From positions 155,947 through 219,946 of the forward strand of contig CAKPFG010000001.1 in assembly GCA_934153675.1 (NCBI GenBank): a stretch of DNA of 64,000 bases. The letters run 5' to 3'. Origin of the DNA: an uncultured Bacilli bacterium. GTDB taxonomy: Bacteria; Bacillota_I; Bacilli_A; RF39; UBA660. Positions 11,503-56,932 of the stretch are shown here, piece after piece. How positions within the stretch are numbered: position 1 is the first letter of the stretch; each line of letters opens with the position of its first letter. The translations under genes were made by a program, and so were the position numbers. The notes beneath the pieces were generated by a model. The model searched no databases and was not told the origin of the DNA. It worked only from the letters and a program-made list of their open reading frames with translations.

Positions 11503-12294
11503 TTAATAAGCATTTATGTTAGTATACTCAACTTTTTCTTTTCCATTATAATAATAACACCATATTACATCAATATCATATTTTTTAATAAAAATTTTTC
11601 CCTCATTAATAGGTAAATATAATAATAAAGATGCTATAAAATCAATATTTTTTATATCATTATTCTTAGAAATTACTGTCACACTTACGTTAGAGGTATC
11701 TTTATTTGAAAAATCATTAATGCTTTTTGTTACTATATATTCGTCTTTAGACTTTAAAGTTATAATAGAATCATCAAAAAATGATGGTATTAAAATAGTA
11801 TAATACTCTTGAGCATTGTTTAATCCTGTTAATACAAATTTATTACTATTAATTTTAAATTTAGTTATTTTTTTTGATTTTAAATAATTTTTCACTCTGT
11901 TATTAGCAAGTGATAAAGCAAAAAAAGAAATATCAGAATTATTTTTAACGATTTTATCTTTCTTTAATATTGGATTAAACTTTATATATTTATTATACTG
12001 TTTAAATTTTAATCCAGTATCGACAATTTCTTTTAATTCATCTTTATAATTTATTTCTGTGTTAGAGTCAAATTCTTTTATAATATTATTGTAGTTAATA
12101 TATATTTTTTTAATATTTTCTAATATTTTTTTACCATCTTTTTTAGTATAAAAAGAAATATTAATTTTTTTTCCATCTAGATCAATAGTTTTATTATATA
12201 AATTTTCTTTAGAACAACCACCAACAAATAAAAAAGGTAACAAACAAATGAATAATACAATAAAATTATTTTTTAGTTTTAATTTTACTGTCAT
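11503..12294 (-). CDS. Lipoprotein, unknown function
   Basis: Signal peptide with lipobox LFVGGCSK; K/N-rich. Confidence 0.4.
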   Translation of the reverse strand: MTVKLKLKNNFIVLFICLLPFLFVGGCSKENLYNKTIDLDGKKINISFYTKKDGKKILENIKKIYINYNNIIKEFDSNTEINYKDELKEIVDTGLKFKQYNKYIKFNPILKKDKIVKNNSDISFFALSLANNRVKNYLKSKKITKFKINSNKFVLTGLNNAQEYYTILIPSFFDDSIITLKSKDEYIVTKSINDFSNKDTSNVSVTVISKNNDIKNIDFIASLLLYLPINEGKIFIKKYDIDVIWCYYYNGKEKVEYTNINAY

Positions 12295-12811
12295 TTTTCT
12301 TCCCAATATAATCGTCAATATTTATAATATTATCCATATTTTTATGGTTTTTATTATTTAAATTAGATAAATATTTTCTATATTCAAAAATAGATAATGT
12401 TTTCAGTGATCGATCTTTTATCTTACTTTTTTTCTTACAATTATCATACTTTTTATTATCCTTTGAATTATCATAAGATAACATATCACTATTAAATTTA
12501 TATAAAATATTATCAATTGAATCAACAATACTAATGTTATCAACTAAATCATAAAATTTAATAATTTCTGTTATATTATTTTTATTAGTACCAATAATAG
12601 GCTTATAATGATAAATAAGTAAATAATTGTCATTAATTTCATAATCTAAATAATAAACAAATGAATCTAATAAAAATCTGCCAATAAAATAAACCTTTTC
12701 CTTACACAAGTTATATATATCATAATAATAACGGTTATTTTCTTGAAACAATAAAATATTAACGCAATTATTATTTGAAGTAATAATTGTATTATTAATT
12801 AATTTTTCCAT
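12266..12811 (-). CDS. Hypothetical protein
   Basis: ORF only; overlaps the downstream lipoprotein ORF start; no recognisable motif. Confidence 0.3.
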   Translation of the reverse strand: MEKLINNTIITSNNNCVNILLFQENNRYYYDIYNLCKEKVYFIGRFLLDSFVYYLDYEINDNYLLIYHYKPIIGTNKNNITEIIKFYDLVDNISIVDSIDNILYKFNSDMLSYDNSKDNKKYDNCKKKSKIKDRSLKTLSIFEYRKYLSNLNNKNHKNMDNIINIDDYIGKKNDSKIKTKK

Positions 12812-13817: not shown

Positions 13818-13865
13818 TAAATCACCATTTTTATTATAACATATTTATATTTTTTTTTAAAGATA

Positions 13866-14096
13866 TTATATTTTAATATTAACTAAAATGACATCCTGCC
13901 CTATTTTTTCTATTTGATTCCATTTAACCACTACTTCACCACTATTTGAAAAACGCGAAATTAAAAATTTGCTTTTTTCTACTATAATACCCGATGATAA
14001 ACCATTAGAATCAATATTAATATCTATAATATTACCTATCATTTTTCCATCATTAATATTGACAATATTTTTATTTTGTAAATCAGAAAGTCGCAT
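13866..14096 (-). CDS. ylmC: YlmC/YmxH-family sporulation protein (PRC barrel)
   Basis: MRLSDLQNKNIVNINDGKMIGNIID..., 76 aa, placed downstream of sigG as in Bacillus. Confidence 0.7.
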   Translation of the reverse strand: MRLSDLQNKNIVNINDGKMIGNIIDINIDSNGLSSGIIVEKSKFLISRFSNSGEVVVKWNQIEKIGQDVILVNIKI

Positions 14097-14119
14097 AAAA
14101 TCACCAATATAATTATATG

Positions 14120-14150
14120 AAAAAAAAGAGAATAAATACTTATCCTCTTT
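14120..14150 (-). terminator. Intrinsic terminator/attenuator hairpin 9 nt upstream of ylmC RBS
   Basis: RNA AGAGGAUAA-guau-UUAUUCUCU (9 bp, one GU) followed by U8. Confidence 0.5.
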
Positions 14151-14154
14151 AATT

Positions 14155-14229
14155 CAGCCAGAGATTACTAAAGCCAACTGAATGTGCGCATTTGATGATT
14201 ACTGATTAGAATGCGCATACCCTCTCGAG
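14155..14229 (-). promoter_or_regulatory. GC-rich structured leader element (candidate cis-regulatory RNA / riboswitch-like aptamer)
   Basis: Only GC-rich island in an AT-rich spacer; palindromic TGCGCA arms 32 nt apart, CUCGAGAGGG 5' segment, duplicated GATTACT; sits between promoter and terminator. Confidence 0.3.
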
Positions 14230-14238
14230 TACATACTA

Positions 14239-14267
14239 ATAATATCATACTTTTTTTAATATTGCAA
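14239..14267 (-). promoter_or_regulatory. Sigma-A-like promoter TTGCAA-N17-TATTAT
   Basis: -35 at 14262-14267, -10 at 14239-14244 on minus strand; predicted TSS ~14231 at start of the GC-rich leader. Confidence 0.4.
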
Positions 14268-14366
14268 GTGGTTTTTCGACAAAATTTGACATTTTTACTA
14301 TTATATATATGTATATACTAATACTAAGGCAAAAAAATTTAAAATATAATATCAATAAATAAACAT

Positions 14367-15143
14367 TTAGTCAAATTTTTTCCTAATATTTTCGATGCCA
14401 CTTTTTTCTAATCTAGATATTTGCGCCTGAGAAATGCCAAGTTCTAAGGCAAGCTCCATTTGTGTTTTTCCTATCAGATATCGTTGATTTATAATGTATT
14501 TTTCCCTTTCTTTTAATGACTCTATTGCATCTTTTAAAGCTATTTTTATATCTATATTTTTCATATTGCTATTTTTTTCTTCCAATTGATCAGATAAATA
14601 TATAGTGTCTCCTCCATCATTATAAATTGGTTCAAACATACTAATAGTTTCTTTCATACTATCTAAAGCATTAGAAACTTCAAATTCTGTTAAATTAAGT
14701 TCTTTAGCTATTTCACAAACTGTAGGTTCTCTGTTGAATTTGTTAGTTAATTGTTCTTTTACTTTTAACGCTTTATATGATATATCTTTGATACTTCTAG
14801 CAATTCTAACACTGTTATTATCTCGTAAATATCTTTTAACTTCTCCTAATATCATGGGAACTGCATAAGTTGAAAATTTAACTTCATGTGAAAGGTCAAA
14901 ATTATCAATAGCTTTAATAAGACCAATACACCCTACTTGAAATAAATCATCCATATTATCGGTGCGGTTATTATATTTTTTTAAAATTGATAGAACTAAT
15001 TTTAAATTACCATTTATTAATTCCTCCTTTGCTTTATAATCACCTTTTTTATACTTTTTAAATAATTCTATCATCTCACTACTTGATAATACATTAATAT
15101 TCGCAGTATTCACGCCATTTATTTTCACTTTATGACGTGACAT
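14367..15143 (-). CDS. sigG: Sporulation sigma factor SigG (sigma-F/G family)
   Basis: MSRHKVKINGV...LVNGNLKLVLS...DDLFQVGCIGLIKAIDNFDLSHEVKFSTYAVPMILGEVKRYLRDNN is near-identical in pattern to B. subtilis SigG. Confidence 0.8.
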   Translation of the reverse strand: MSRHKVKINGVNTANINVLSSSEMIELFKKYKKGDYKAKEELINGNLKLVLSILKKYNNRTDNMDDLFQVGCIGLIKAIDNFDLSHEVKFSTYAVPMILGEVKRYLRDNNSVRIARSIKDISYKALKVKEQLTNKFNREPTVCEIAKELNLTEFEVSNALDSMKETISMFEPIYNDGGDTIYLSDQLEEKNSNMKNIDIKIALKDAIESLKEREKYIINQRYLIGKTQMELALELGISQAQISRLEKSGIENIRKKFD

Positions 15144-15162
15144 TCAAATTCTCCTTTCATCA

Positions 15163-15192
15163 TATATTGATAAAAATTTAAATATTATATAC
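15163..15192 (-). promoter_or_regulatory. Forespore-type (sigma-F/G-like) promoter GTATA-N18-CAATATA
   Basis: -35 GTATA (15188-15192) and -10 CAATATA (15163-15169) with 18-nt spacer ~20 nt before sigG ATG; approximate match to GHATR-N18-CATnnTA. Confidence 0.3.
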
Positions 15193-15254
15193 AATTAATA
15201 TTTTTTTACTTGAATTTAAAATAATTATATAGTACTATTGTATCGGGTGATTTA

Positions 15255-16031
15255 ATGAATGAACAGAATTTAACAAATTATTATAATAAATTTAATGAAA
15301 ATAAAAGATTATTAACTCGTCATGGAAAATTAGAATTTATTACTGTAACAAAATATATTGAAATATATTTAAAAAAATATAAGCATCCTAAAATAATAGA
15401 TATAGGTGCTGGTACCGGCAGATATGCCAAATATTTAGCAGAAAAAGGTTTTGATGTAACAGCTGTAGAATTAGTTAAACATAATTTAAGAATAATTGAA
15501 GAAGATAAAAGAATTAAAGCCTATCAAGGAAATGCCTTAGATTTATCTAGATTTAAAGATAAAAGCTTTGATATAGTTTTATTATTTGGCCCTCTATATC
15601 ATTTAATTAGTGATAAAGATAAATTAAAAGCATTGAGGGAAGCTAAAAGAATATTAAAAGATGATGGCATTATGTTTGTACAATATATAATGAATGAATA
15701 TTGTGTAATAACACACGGTTTTAAGGAAAAAATGATCATTAATGAAATGATAAATAATAAATTAGATAATAATTACAAAATCACCCCTAGTAAGCAAGAT
15801 CTATATGCTCCTGTTAGAATCTGTGATATCAATTTTTTTAATGAACAAGTTAAATTAAAAAGAATAAAAATATTATCTCCAACAGGTCCTGCTAACTATA
15901 TCAGAAAATATATTAACAAATTAACAGAACAGGAATTCAATATATTTATAGATTATCATTTAAAAACTTGTGAAAAATATGAGTTACTAGGAGCATCATC
16001 ACACATATTAGATATATTAATAAAAAAGTAA
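15255..16031 (+). CDS. Class I SAM-dependent methyltransferase
   Basis: IIDIGAGTGRYAKYLAEKGFDVTAVE motif I, LLFGPLYH post-I; RBS GGGTGAT. Confidence 0.75.
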   Translation: MNEQNLTNYYNKFNENKRLLTRHGKLEFITVTKYIEIYLKKYKHPKIIDIGAGTGRYAKYLAEKGFDVTAVELVKHNLRIIEEDKRIKAYQGNALDLSRFKDKSFDIVLLFGPLYHLISDKDKLKALREAKRILKDDGIMFVQYIMNEYCVITHGFKEKMIINEMINNKLDNNYKITPSKQDLYAPVRICDINFFNEQVKLKRIKILSPTGPANYIRKYINKLTEQEFNIFIDYHLKTCEKYELLGASSHILDILIKK

Positions 16032-16060
16032 ATATTAAAATAAAAAAGTAAATATTAAAA
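16021..16060 (+). repeat. 20-bp tandem duplication (TAAAAAAGTAAATATTAAAA x2) spanning the methyltransferase stop codon
   Basis: Two exact adjacent copies, partial third. Confidence 0.6.
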
Positions 16061-16061
16061 T

Positions 16062-16091
16062 AAAAAAAAGCAAATAAATATTTGCTTTTTT
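16062..16091. terminator. Bidirectional intrinsic terminator between methyltransferase and ftsZ
   Basis: A8-GCAAATA-aa-TATTTGC-T6. Confidence 0.5.
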
Positions 16092-16092
16092 A

Positions 16093-17223
16093 TTAGAAAC
16101 TGCTTCTTTTCCTTAAAAATGATGGAATAATATCATCATCTTCATCATCAGACGAATTTATACTTTGGTCTAATGATGGCACTGTTTGTCTTGATAATTC
16201 ACTTCTTGTTTGACTTTGAAGAACTTTTGGTTCTTCTTTAGCAGTTGTAGTATAAGAATGATATAAAGGTTCTTTTTCATCTTCAAAGCCAGTAGCGATA
16301 ACAGTTACAATTATTTCGTCATTTAAATTTTCATTAATAACTGCTCCAAATATTGTATTAATATCTGTGTTAGCGCTTGATCTGATAACTTCTGCTGCCT
16401 CCTCTACTTCAAATAGAGTAAGATTGTTACCTCCAGTAACATTAATAATGGCATCAGTAGCACCACTAATACTAGTTTCTAAAAGTGGTGAGGCAACAGC
16501 TTGTCTAGCTGCTTCTGTTGCTCTATTTTCTCCAACACCTATACCAATACCGATAAGAGCACTACCACGTTTTTCCATAACAGTTTTAACATCTGCAAAA
16601 TCCAAATTGATTAATCCAGCAACAGCTATTAAATCTGATATAGATTGAACTCCACGTCTAAGTACATTATCAACTTCTTTAAATGATTCCAATAAAGGTG
16701 TTGATTTATCAATAATCTCTCTTAACTTATCATTTGGTATAACAATTAATGTATCAACATTTTTCTTTAATTCTTCAATACCAACTAAAGCTTGTTCCAT
16801 ACGCCTTTTTCCTTCAAAAGAAAATGGTTTTGTAACAATACCTACAGTAAGAGCTCCCAATTCTTGGGCAATTGATGCAATAACAGGAGCAGCTCCAGTA
16901 CCAGTACCACCACCCATACCACAAGTAATGAATACCATATCAGCACCTTTTAATGATTCTTCAATTTCTTTTTTACTTTCTAAAGCTGCTTCTCTACCTA
17001 TTTCAGGTTTAGCCCCAGCACCACGACCACCTGTTAGTGATTGTCCTATTTGAATTTTAGTTTGTGCCTTAGAACAATTTAATACTTGTAAATCAGTGTT
17101 AGCAACTATAAATTCTACTCCTTTTACTCCTGTTTCTATCATTCGGTTGACAGCATTTCCTCCACCGCCACCGATTCCTATAACCTTAATTTTCGCAATT
17201 TGATCCATTTCTAATCCAAACAT
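16093..17223 (-). CDS. ftsZ: Cell division GTPase FtsZ
   Basis: [13 protein letters not shown], tubulin signature [13 protein letters not shown], acidic C-terminal tail. Confidence 0.95.
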
Positions 17224-25725: not shown

Positions 25726-26508
25726 TCACCCACTATAATTACTACTAACACCTAAATAAGATTCTAAACTAATAATATCTCCATTATTATATAATTTTTT
25801 AGCAAGGCTTTTTCCTACATATCTATAATGCCATGCTTCAAACTGATATCCTGTTTCATTCTCCTTGCCTTCTGGAAAGCGTAAAATAAAACCATATTTA
25901 TAATAATTGTTAAAAACCCATTTACCAATATCTGTATTAAAGAAATTGGCATTTGTACCATTCATATCAAAACAAAGACCACTTTGATGTTCTGAATAAC
26001 CTGGACGGGCTGAGTATGTATCTGCTTGATTTTTACCATCACGGGCTACATAATTATTATAAAGATCAACTTGCACTTTATATGAACGATATCCACTTGA
26101 TAAATACAAATTATATCCAGCTTTTTTAGCATCACGTTGCATATCTAAAAAGGCTAAATATGTTGTTTTATCTATATAATCTGCACCATATAAATAATCA
26201 CTTGTAATTTCTTTATAAGGATATAAAGGAGTATAAGTACTATCTAAATTATAAGTTTTATTAACAATCATAATGCCATTTACATAATAAGCACCATTAT
26301 ATTTAGTTAAATTCATCCCTGTTTTGGTTTTTTTAATAAAAGTCTCACCATCTTTAAGCTTATACTCCACATTATCCGTTTTTATCTTTTCTTTTATTTT
26401 TACTTCTTCTTTTTTTTTCACTTTTAAATTATTTTTATTTTCGACACTAAATAAAATAACACTTAAAATAATTAAAACAATTACCAAAAAAAAACATATT
26501 TTTTTCAT
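25726..26508 (-). CDS. Secreted M15B D-Ala-D-Ala carboxypeptidase (VanY-like) family peptidase
   Basis: Signal peptide; SGYRSYKVQ ... SEHQSGLCFDM zinc-binding H/D/H motifs of VanY/M15. Confidence 0.65.
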   Translation of the reverse strand: MKKICFFLVIVLIILSVILFSVENKNNLKVKKKEEVKIKEKIKTDNVEYKLKDGETFIKKTKTGMNLTKYNGAYYVNGIMIVNKTYNLDSTYTPLYPYKEITSDYLYGADYIDKTTYLAFLDMQRDAKKAGYNLYLSSGYRSYKVQVDLYNNYVARDGKNQADTYSARPGYSEHQSGLCFDMNGTNANFFNTDIGKWVFNNYYKYGFILRFPEGKENETGYQFEAWHYRYVGKSLAKKLYNNGDIISLESYLGVSSNYSG

Positions 26509-42573: not shown

Positions 42574-43995
42574 TTAATATTGTATACCCCATATTACCGA
42601 ATACTTGGCCTCATTACCACAACATACACACTTACCAGTAAGCAACTCATCATCAGTAATACATCTAGATTTACAACCATTTATTTCCTTTATTTTTTCT
42701 TCGCATTCATCACAACCACAGAAATCAGCCCTTATAAACCCTGGTTGCTTATTTAAAATATTTTTTATATCATCCATATTATATGCTTTAAAAGTCAATT
42801 CTTCTCTTCTTTTCAAAGCTTTACTATACATATCATTTTGAATTGTATTAAGTAAATCTTTAGTATAATTAACAACATTATCAAAATCAGTCAAAATCTT
42901 TTCTCTTGTATCACGGCGAACAAAAGTTATTTTATTATTCTCTAAATCACGAGGCCCAATCTCTATTCTAATTGGAATACCACTAACCTCTGCTTCTGCA
43001 AATTTATATCCTGGAGATTTTTGTGATTCATCTATTTTAACCATTATATTATTTTTTGCAAGATCATCTTTTATACTTCGACACTTATCAATAACAAAAC
43101 TAGAATTTCCAATAGGTATAATAACAACACTAATAGGTGCTATTTTTGGAGGCAGAACCAACCCATAATCATCACTATGAACCATAATTAAACCTCCAAT
43201 CATCCTAGTTGTAGTACCAAATGATGATTGATAACAATATTCTAACTTATTATCTTTATTTAAAAATTTAACATCATAAGCCTTAGCAAACTTATCTCCA
43301 AAATAATGAGAAGTGCCAGATTGTAATGCTACCCCATTATACATTAAAGCCTCATTAGTAAGTGTATAAACAGCCCCAGCAAATTTTTCTTTTTCCGTTT
43401 TTCTACCAACAATCGTTGGAATAGCTAAAATATCATGAAAAAACCATTTATATACATCTATCATTTGTTTAGTTTCATTCATAGCCTCTTCTTTTGTTGC
43501 ATGAACAGTATGTCCTTCTTGCCATAAAAACTCACGACTTCTCAAAAAAGGTCTTGTTTCTTTTTCCCATCTTAATACATTGCACCACTGATTATATAAT
43601 TTAGGCAAATCTCTATATGAAGTAATATGTTTTTTATAATAATCACAAAACAAAGTTTCACTAGTAGGCCTTATACATAATCTCTCATCAAGATTTTTTT
43701 TACCACCCATAGTTACCCAAGCCACTTCCGGAGCAAAGCCATTTACCAATTCACTTTCCTTATTAAGTAAACTCTCAGGTATTAAAAGAGGCATTTGACA
43801 ATTAACATGGCCCAACTCTTTAAATTTCTTATCAAGAATTTCTTGCATACGCTCCCATATAGCATATCCAGCAGGTTCTATCGCAATACATCCTTTAACA
43901 GATGTATAATCAGCAAGCTTAGCAGCACGTACAACATCCGTATACCACTTTGCAAAATCAACGCTTCTTTTAGTAATCTGCTTATTACAACTCAT
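42574..43995 (-). CDS. proS: Proline--tRNA ligase, archaeal/eukaryote-like short form
   Basis: 473 aa class II aaRS with ProRS motifs and C-terminal zinc-binding Cys cluster (CGCDECEEK...CVCCG). Confidence 0.85.
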   Translation of the reverse strand: MSCNKQITKRSVDFAKWYTDVVRAAKLADYTSVKGCIAIEPAGYAIWERMQEILDKKFKELGHVNCQMPLLIPESLLNKESELVNGFAPEVAWVTMGGKKNLDERLCIRPTSETLFCDYYKKHITSYRDLPKLYNQWCNVLRWEKETRPFLRSREFLWQEGHTVHATKEEAMNETKQMIDVYKWFFHDILAIPTIVGRKTEKEKFAGAVYTLTNEALMYNGVALQSGTSHYFGDKFAKAYDVKFLNKDNKLEYCYQSSFGTTTRMIGGLIMVHSDDYGLVLPPKIAPISVVIIPIGNSSFVIDKCRSIKDDLAKNNIMVKIDESQKSPGYKFAEAEVSGIPIRIEIGPRDLENNKITFVRRDTREKILTDFDNVVNYTKDLLNTIQNDMYSKALKRREELTFKAYNMDDIKNILNKQPGFIRADFCGCDECEEKIKEINGCKSRCITDDELLTGKCVCCGNEAKYSVIWGIQY

Positions 43996-56455: not shown

Positions 56456-56932
56456 TTATCTTGATTTATATAATAAATATCCTACTAAAGAACCGATAAC
56501 ATTCAAAATAATATCGTCTATATCAAATACTCTCCCTATTAATAACTGAAATGTTTCTATTAAACTAGAGTAAATAATAGTAACTATTAAAATAAAAAAA
56601 CATTTTGCCTTATAAAAGTATGCCAAAAATAAACCAAATGGTATAAAAAGTAATATATTTCCTATTACATTTTTAAAAAATAAATTACTACCTATTTTAT
56701 ATCTAGTAATCTCTTTAAATAATTTCATATTATTATCATTATAATTTAATATTTGCGTTGTAACTATATTAAATAAAATTAATAAATAAATAATAAAAAG
56801 GATTATTATAAATTCTTGTTTTATATTTATTTTTTGTTTAAGTTTTATTCTGTTTGTAATAATAAATAAGATATAACTTATAACTGATAAAACAATTAAT
56901 TTGTAAGAATTAATTAGTATTGTTTGGCTCAT
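56456..56932 (-). CDS. VanZ-like family membrane protein
   Basis: GNILLFIPFGLFLAYF and C-terminal NVIGSLVGYLLY typical of VanZ-like proteins. Confidence 0.5.
   Translation of the reverse strand: MSQTILINSYKLIVLSVISYILFIITNRIKLKQKINIKQEFIIILFIIYLLILFNIVTTQILNYNDNNMKLFKEITRYKIGSNLFFKNVIGNILLFIPFGLFLAYFYKAKCFFILIVTIIYSSLIETFQLLIGRVFDIDDIILNVIGSLVGYLLYKSR

Follow-up and report, generated by a model that had tools for sequence, protein, structure and literature searches.

To our knowledge, few sRNAs are tied to the onset of sporulation, and RNA regulation is almost unexplored in the uncultured, very low-GC Bacilli of the gut and rumen. Firmicute sRNAs of the RoxS/RsaE type carry a repeated short motif in several unpaired regions, end in a terminator and pair with translation-initiation regions; their motifs are C-rich and pair with the Shine-Dalgarno sequence itself, and these RNAs are widely conserved. 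In E. coli, OxyS represses fhlA by forming kissing complexes at two sites (Argaman and Altuvia 2000, in PMC2946933). OxyS is an sRNA of ∼110 nt with three stem-loops, and two of its loops contact two sites of one mRNA near the ribosome-binding site, which blocks translation (PMC2946933). CsfG, a sporulation-specific sRNA of endospore formers, comes from the strand opposite to the Rfam "ylbH leader"; it was first regarded as an orphan riboswitch or leader and was later shown to be an independent sRNA with conserved loop motifs (PMC3574147).

A locus in the window (the whole 64-kb stretch of DNA analysed here) resembles each of these systems in part. Between sigG and ylmC, a promoter, a structured RNA and an intrinsic terminator precede a gene on the same strand, as in the terminator-type riboswitches and attenuators (T-box, purine and SAM leaders); unlike these, the candidate has no antiterminator and no junction-centred conservation and is not conserved with its downstream gene. 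Like RoxS/RsaE, it is a compact, terminator-ended RNA with a repeated unpaired motif apparently aimed at translation-initiation regions. However, its motif is AGUAAUC, its proposed pairing lies beside the Shine-Dalgarno sequence, its distribution is limited to one narrow clade of low-GC, uncultured Bacilli and it has no Rfam match. The predicted size, the three stem-loops and the two loops directed at one mRNA near its ribosome-binding site recall OxyS and fhlA. There is no sequence or phylogenetic kinship with OxyS, which is proteobacterial, OxyR-controlled and Hfq-dependent; further, both loops of the candidate carry one heptamer, the proposed sites lie on either side of the Shine-Dalgarno sequence and include the AUG, and the candidate is known from sequence alone. 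CsfG has a history that parallels that of the present RNA, but its gene is located between ylbG and ylbH and depends on sigma-F/G and its loops are CU-rich, whereas the promoter of the candidate is of the sigma-A type. Identity with CsfG was rejected on its ylbG-ylbH location, its position on the reverse strand of the ylbH leader, its CU-rich loops and the lack of any Rfam match to that family in the window. By comparison with these systems, the RNA is a new family of putative sRNAs whose proposed mechanism, two-site loop contact, is of an already known type. On balance, and with some reservation, we favour the reading that 14232..∼14120 is an independent gene for a trans-acting sRNA of ∼110 nt that represses csp, a cold-shock protein gene, by means of two loops and is possibly controlled by Spo0A.

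Organization and conservation of the RNA between sigG and ylmC

The 270-nt minus-strand spacer between sigG and ylmC houses a promoter, three hairpins and a terminator (Table 1), and human gut metagenomes contain the same species with a spacer almost identical to that of the window. Because both SigG and YlmC are encoded, the genome is probably that of a spore former. In a window with an overall GC content of 24%, promoter-like matches occur about as often as expected by chance (35 found versus 32 expected). The promoter of the putative sRNA has an extended -10 (TG at 14247-14246, minus strand), and in all six variants of the element it takes the form TTGmAw, a 17-nt spacer, TGn, TAwwAT and a 6-nt gap to a G; this fixed gap predicts transcription to start at G14232. 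A sigma-F/G promoter was considered and rejected by eye, because its hexamers misfit across the variants and TTG, the 17-nt spacer and TGnTAwwAT fit.

Table 1. Coordinates of the features discussed, in window numbering.
Feature	Position	Strand	Remarks
ylmC/ymxH (PRC-barrel sporulation protein)	13866-14096	minus	NCBIfam TIGR02888, 65.7 bits versus cutoff 44.2
ylmC ribosome-binding site GGUGA	14105..14101	minus	downstream neighbour, outside the sRNA
-10-like motif CATATAAT	14112..14119	minus	15 nt upstream of the ylmC ATG; probably belongs to ylmC, not to the sRNA
Predicted intrinsic terminator	14120..14150	minus	A/U-rich 11-bp hairpin (14150..14125), U8 at 14127..14120
Putative sRNA gene	14232..∼14120	minus	∼110 nt; three tandem hairpins and terminator
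sRNA core	14151..14232	minus	covariance-model match of 108 bits; predicted +1 at G14232
P1 (CUCGAGAGGG)	14232..14217	minus	6 bp, tetraloop
P2	14216..14186	minus	7 bp, GCGCAUU/AAUGCGC
P2 apical loop CUAAUCAGUAAUCAUCA	14193..14209	minus	holds proposed seed 2, CAGUAAUCAUCA
P3	14183..14152	minus	7-10 bp
P3 apical loop CUUUAGUAAUCU	14162..14173	minus	proposed seed 1, UAGUAAUCUCU, extends 2 nt into the stem
Sigma-A-type promoter, extended -10	14239..14267	minus	-35 TTGCAA 14267..14262; 17-nt spacer; -10 TATTAT 14244..14239
Tandem direct heptamers, 10 bp apart	14291..14285 TGTCAAA; 14281..14275 TGTCGAA	minus	second is a perfect Spo0A-box core
SigG-type sigma gene (sigG)	14367-15143	minus	best NCBIfam match SigG, 371 bits

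The structured part of the transcript is predicted to fold into the three hairpins and the terminator (-30.4 kcal/mol; z = -2.2 for the MFE). The heptamer AGUAAUC occurs twice on the RNA strand (14203..14197 and 14169..14163), once in each of the P2 and P3 loops and each time within an invariant stretch of 11-12 nt. The terminator was missed by a consensus scan because it has fewer than 3 G-C pairs. In four relatives (L007, L040, L008 and L018), its stem has another sequence with the pairing kept and U8 always following; the stem thus covaries, and it is stronger in these relatives than in the window, where its energy is -8.9 kcal/mol.

Relatives were sampled via YlmC homologues, and extra copies came from scans of genomes and metagenomes with the loop pattern described below. 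The element is present at ylmC in the window and in L007 and L040 (YlmC 83% identical to that of the window), L008 (74%) and L018 (80%; P0016); the L018 copy came from the genome scan, and a more diverged copy, L034, came from the metagenome scan. A covariance model built from four variants found one copy in each positive locus at 97-111 bits, and L034 at 42 bits, with no match in the other loci scanned. All 20 modelled pairs are formed in five distinct core sequences, and 4 of them are changed on both sides, compared with only 17-45% paired in controls with slid partners; RNAalifold independently recovered the same three helices. All of the double changes come from L034, which was aligned by fitting to the covariance model because a MAFFT alignment that included it misaligned the helices. 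The P2 loop core, CAGUAAUCAUC, is invariant in six variants. In three of these (L007, L008 and L040) the loops are unbiased because the loci were found via YlmC, whereas L018, L034 and all csp matches were found with the loop pattern, so that their invariance is partly a product of the search. Further, the methyltransferase-sigG block is inverted in L034 (176-3031), which places the RNA 3' of the methyltransferase gene and not of sigG; the element is therefore not tied to sigG.

Searches with Rfam 15 gave no match in the whole 64-kb window at gathering thresholds and none over 13850-14450 at E ≤ 10, with riboswitches, the ylbH/CsfG leader, 6S, SRP and known sRNAs included. The whole window also holds no tRNA or tmRNA genes. 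Fusobacterium phages gave weak AT-rich matches to the promoter flank and plasmids gave none, and a phage or plasmid origin of the element was rejected. Overall, the element has its own promoter in six variants and a Rho-independent terminator in all five full-length variants, which together bound a short non-coding unit, and its invariant seeds, CAGUAAUCAUC and UAGUAAUCUCU, are exposed in the loops of covarying hairpins. On this comparative evidence, 14232..∼14120 is very probably a real, conserved sRNA gene without an Rfam match.

We also considered whether the transcript encodes a small peptide, because an AUG at 14218 opens a 16-codon ORF, MRILISNHQMRTFSWL, and an ORF with an upstream purine-rich stretch occurs in the window, L007, L040, L008 and L018. 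However, the purine stretch stops 1 nt before the AUG, the ORF varies in length (16, 14 and 11 codons) and conservation runs past the stop codons. L034 has no AUG at this position and nevertheless keeps the hairpins by means of compensatory changes. Because the ORF is not conserved in L034, this explanation was rejected as scarcely credible, and the non-coding sRNA gene is the reading retained below.

Much of what an earlier note had described from the same DNA stands. The near-consensus sigma-A promoter TTGCAA-N17-TATTAT is present, with the extended -10 and the geometry fixed in six variants. The note had proposed that transcription starts within the spacer at about 14231; a start of its own is predicted by the conserved geometry, with the position shifted to 14232. 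The island that it had called GC-rich has a GC content of 0.39 at 14160-14239 and is GC-rich only relative to its flanks (0.14-0.19). Its first hairpin (P1), its UGCGCA arms (P2) and its GGCUG segment (the 3' arm of P3) were all recovered, and consistent with its failure to recognise the fold as any known riboswitch family, no known Rfam element explains the RNA. The terminator hairpin and its U8 are present and kept in relatives, with a stem of 11 bp (14150..14125) where the note gave 9 bp. Two details need correction. The heptamer is indeed duplicated; GAUUACU, as the note gave it, is the plus-strand complement of AGUAAUC in the RNA. The U-tract ends 14 nt, and not 9 nt, before the ylmC ribosome-binding site GGUGA.

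The neighbourhood has two further peculiarities. Compared with the classical order ftsAZ-spoIIGA-sigE-sigG, the window lacks spoIIGA-sigE between ftsZ and sigG, and a SAM-dependent methyltransferase gene on the opposite strand separates sigG from ftsZ (14367-17223). Downstream of a gene for an IagA/BgsA-type glycosyltransferase, two minus-strand ORFs of 181 and 271 aa overlap by ∼50 nt (11503-12811). Neither has an NCBIfam match, and their counterparts in related contigs have no Pfam match, except for the second ORF of L007, which matches ApbE.

Relation of the RNA to ylmC

The earlier note had read the locus as a riboswitch- or attenuator-like leader of ylmC. On this view the locus would act in cis, as a riboswitch or a leader-peptide-less attenuator whose hairpins bind a ligand or factor and whose terminator gates read-through into ylmC. 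The order of promoter, structured RNA and terminator directly 5' of ylmC on the same strand is consistent with this, as are the position of all full-length copies next to ylmC (window, L007, L008, L018 and L040) and the absence of a match to any Rfam family. We compared the predicted structures and the distribution of the element with what this reading implies. When the 3' arm of the terminator was blocked in the five full-length variants, the 5' arm was left unpaired and P1-P3 were unchanged, and no antiterminator or mutually exclusive pairing was found in any of them; the RNA thus has no expression platform. Nor does the modelled fold contain a ligand-binding core with a multi-helix junction, because it consists of three tandem hairpins whose invariant nucleotides lie in the apical loops.

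The distribution of the element also argues against a leader of ylmC. It is absent at ylmC in 7 of the 12 related lineages sampled (L009-L013, L041 and L042), close ones included. At six loci without the element, the spacer upstream of ylmC is 33-72 nt long; L013 has a 318-nt spacer that gave no covariance-model match. The YlmC proteins of L041 and L042 are 78% and 80% identical to that of the window, and their spacers, without the element, measure 33-48 nt. Further, loci with the sRNA (L007, L008, L018 and L040) have the motif CATAyAnT between the terminator and the ribosome-binding site of ylmC, and the motif is also found at loci without the sRNA (L013, L041 and L042). Because both kinds of locus have the motif, ylmC is probably transcribed from a promoter of its own that follows the terminator, with CATATAAT as its probable -10 in the window. 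The latter sequence is compatible with both the sigma-E/K-type CATAcAnT and the sigma-A hexamer TATAAT. At 15 nt upstream of the ylmC ATG, the motif would leave ylmC with a very short leader.

The pairing potential of the loops adds to this. Their complementarity to the initiation regions of ylmC, sigG, ftsZ, ftsA, the methyltransferase gene and the glycosyltransferase gene was at background level only. By contrast, both conserved loops are perfectly complementary to the initiation region of csp (see below), which points to action in trans, and we regard action in trans rather than in cis as likely. With no antiterminator, no junction, absence from the ylmC locus in 7 of 12 lineages and loops that match a target in trans, a riboswitch or attenuator leader of ylmC appears very improbable. 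With regard to conservation, which the earlier note had proposed to check, the pairing of the UGCGCA stem and of the terminator is kept or covarying, whereas the element does not lie upstream of all ylmC orthologues. The locus thus serves as a cautionary case: the order of promoter, structure, terminator and gene mimics a riboswitch and is better read as an sRNA gene between two other genes, a reinterpretation that parallels the one that led from the ylbH leader to CsfG (PMC3574147).

Dual use of the transcript is a milder form of a link to ylmC. The sRNA would be made by termination, and partial read-through would provide ylmC with an early input beside that from its own promoter. The common strand, the distance of only 23 nt from the U-tract to the ylmC ATG and the A/U-rich terminator stem of the window, at -8.9 kcal/mol, are compatible with this. 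However, U8 and the conserved hairpin predict efficient termination, ylmC of relatives does well without the upstream unit and no regulated switch is present, and we consider dual use unlikely. An sRNA that acts in trans is the reading followed in the next section.

Complementarity of the apical loops to csp

We scanned 596 Gb of species-representative genomes with the pattern CAGTAATCATC-N18-30-TAGTAATCTC, taken from the two loops. Besides one sRNA homologue (L018), this gave four unrelated matches (∼3.5 expected by chance) and three csp loci. These csp loci are orthologous and come from uncultured Bacillales/Erysipelotrichaceae, and in each the match is the reverse complement of the initiation region. 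A scan of metagenomes with the same loop pattern and a gap of 8-30 gave 4 sRNA matches and 7 csp matches. All four assemblies with the sRNA also hold a matching csp: OLGZ01 (sRNA in L024, csp in L036), OJAW01 (L032 and L035), JAEEGL01 (L037, with csp in both L025 and L033) and Ga0256404 (L034 and L027). The exact sRNA of the window occurs in two assemblies, both of which have the same csp variant, and the GC content of the csp contigs is 23-28%, compared with 24% for the window.

In csp, the sense strand reads GUA-AGAGAUUACUA-GAAGGGAG-AUGU..-UGAUGAUUACUG-G. Seed 1 in the P3 loop, UAGUAAUCUCU, is complementary to AGAGAUUACUA, which abuts the Shine-Dalgarno sequence on its 5' side, and seed 2 in the P2 loop, CAGUAAUCAUCA, is complementary to UGAUGAUUACUG, which covers the AUG and codons 2-4. 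The two sites are separate perfect matches of 11 and 12 nt, and their order and spacing suit antiparallel pairing, with P3 followed by P2. Calculated duplex energies are -19.4 kcal/mol for the P2 loop and -16.8 kcal/mol for the P3 loop, and a predicted cofold of the two RNAs contains both contacts (gain, -22.8 kcal/mol). Whole-core RNAduplex energies were undiscriminating, because the background reaches -45 kcal/mol, and a loop-only score was therefore used. By this score, csp reaches a sum of -36.2 or -34.3 kcal/mol, compared with a window background of -10.8 ± 4.05 kcal/mol and a window minimum of -28.4 kcal/mol (n = 25,449). On each csp contig scanned, the top-scoring site is the csp initiation region. 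No gene in the 64-kb window, ylmC and sigG included, has comparable two-site complementarity.

The two sites are not general to csp. In csp orthologues that were sampled independently of the loop pattern (the P0127 type, identical in csp-hpf synteny), site 1 reads GAAUUACUA and pairs with a bulge, and AUGAUGAAAGG stands in place of site 2, where the match is missing; their loop energies reach no more than -7 to -9 and -12 to -13 kcal/mol. These weak sites indicate that the two-site arrangement is a trait of the subclade and not a general feature of csp. Further, the position beside site 2 changes on both partners: the sRNA of the window has an A where csp reads GGU (L035/L036), and that of L034 has a U opposite GGA in the csp of L027, matched by assembly.

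The link between the two genes is one of co-occurrence within four metagenome assemblies, on contigs of the same GC class. No csp gene was found in the 64-kb window itself. Tetranucleotide signatures of L035/L036 and the species of the window were undiscriminating at 4-8 kb, and the exact Csp sequence of L035 was not among the homologues listed, its 90% cluster having 433 members. In three genomes with csp sites (L014, L020 and L021), the genome scan gave no sRNA match, which could reflect incomplete metagenome-assembled genomes, masked stretches or true absence; if the sRNA is truly absent from them, the csp sites would be kept for another reason.

These considerations bear on the possibility that the sRNA is genuine and its match to csp incidental or secondary, the AGUAAUC loops instead binding a protein or mRNAs other than csp in the manner of a sponge or decoy. 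The anatomy of the sRNA gene is equally well explained by this, the sRNA-csp link stands at the level of assemblies and not of a single genome, three csp-bearing genomes lack an sRNA match, and the window contains other 11-nt matches to the P3 loop, at ∼56714 and ∼43979 (minus). On the other side are two perfect sites, of 11 and 12 nt, correctly ordered and spaced around the Shine-Dalgarno sequence and the start codon, co-occurrence in 4 of 4 assemblies within the same low-GC group, and a two-loop score that nothing in the 64-kb window approaches. We therefore consider an incidental match rather unlikely, and csp appears, by a modest balance of the sequence evidence, to be a target of the sRNA.

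These other 11-nt matches to the P3 loop region, both of them perfect complements, lie at ∼56704-56714 and ∼43969-43979 (minus). One, AGAGATTACTA, falls at codons 5-8 of a possible ORF, and the other, AGATTACTAAA, lies ∼17 nt inside a gene that has a strong ribosome-binding site; either may be a secondary target or due to chance.

If csp is the target, the sRNA would be transcribed from its own extended -10, sigma-A-type promoter and would fold into the 5'-terminal hairpin P1, P2 and P3 with their large apical loops, and the Rho-independent terminator. The P3 loop would pair just 5' of the csp Shine-Dalgarno sequence and the P2 loop across the csp start codon. In the target mRNA, in which csp is the first gene of a csp-hpf pair, the two contacts would clamp the csp ribosome-binding site, block initiation of translation and possibly trigger decay; in this way the sRNA would limit or shape the synthesis of Csp. 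We infer from these features that the sRNA would be expressed, would pair with csp mRNA in vivo and would repress csp, and that it may be controlled by Spo0A. The candidate offers a definite prediction that experiments can address, pairing at two sites around the ribosome-binding site of csp, with Spo0A as a plausible regulator. Its practical consequences are modest, given that it belongs to a narrow, uncultured clade and that its proposed mechanism is already known in kind.

Spo0A-box cores at the sRNA and csp promoters

Upstream of the sRNA promoter, the heptamer TGTCGAA, which is the core motif of the Spo0A box (PMC3485338), ends 7 nt before the -35 hexamer. In the window, L007, L040 and L008, this heptamer precedes the -35 by 6-7 nt, and L018 has TGTTGAA; the sRNA promoter of L034 has no evident 0A box. 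TGTCGAA occurs only three times in the window on both strands, and the other two copies, at 26440-26446 and 43077-43083 (minus), apparently lie within coding sequence and are probably due to chance. Most csp contigs have a pair of such boxes in the csp promoter, spaced by 10 bp and about as far from an extended -10; these boxes are degenerate in L035/L036. The core is thus common to the csp promoter and, in most variants, the sRNA promoter, which suggests that both respond to Spo0A~P.

Spo0A may bind the tandem heptamers (14275..14291), where the core, ∼45-60 bp upstream of the start in most sRNA promoter variants and likewise in the csp promoter, would make the sRNA and csp responsive to Spo0A~P as cells enter stationary phase or begin to sporulate. 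From the motif and its position, we tentatively propose such control of the sRNA, which is possible and by no means assured. A further extension, that Spo0A drives both the sRNA and csp-hpf in an incoherent feed-forward loop, with two near-identical seeds clamping the ribosome-binding site, in uncultured spore-forming Bacilli of the gut and rumen, is speculative and probably goes too far; if true, it would tie expression of a cold-shock protein and of ribosome hibernation to the decision to sporulate.

Downstream of csp, hpf, a gene for a ribosome hibernation factor of the S30AE family, is found at csp loci L014, L020, L021, L025, L027, L035, L036 and L038 as well as at L043-L050. The csp-hpf loci of low-GC Bacilli have at least one TGTCGAA upstream, an extended -10 and a short 5'UTR, and the two genes may form a stationary-phase unit under the control of Spo0A.
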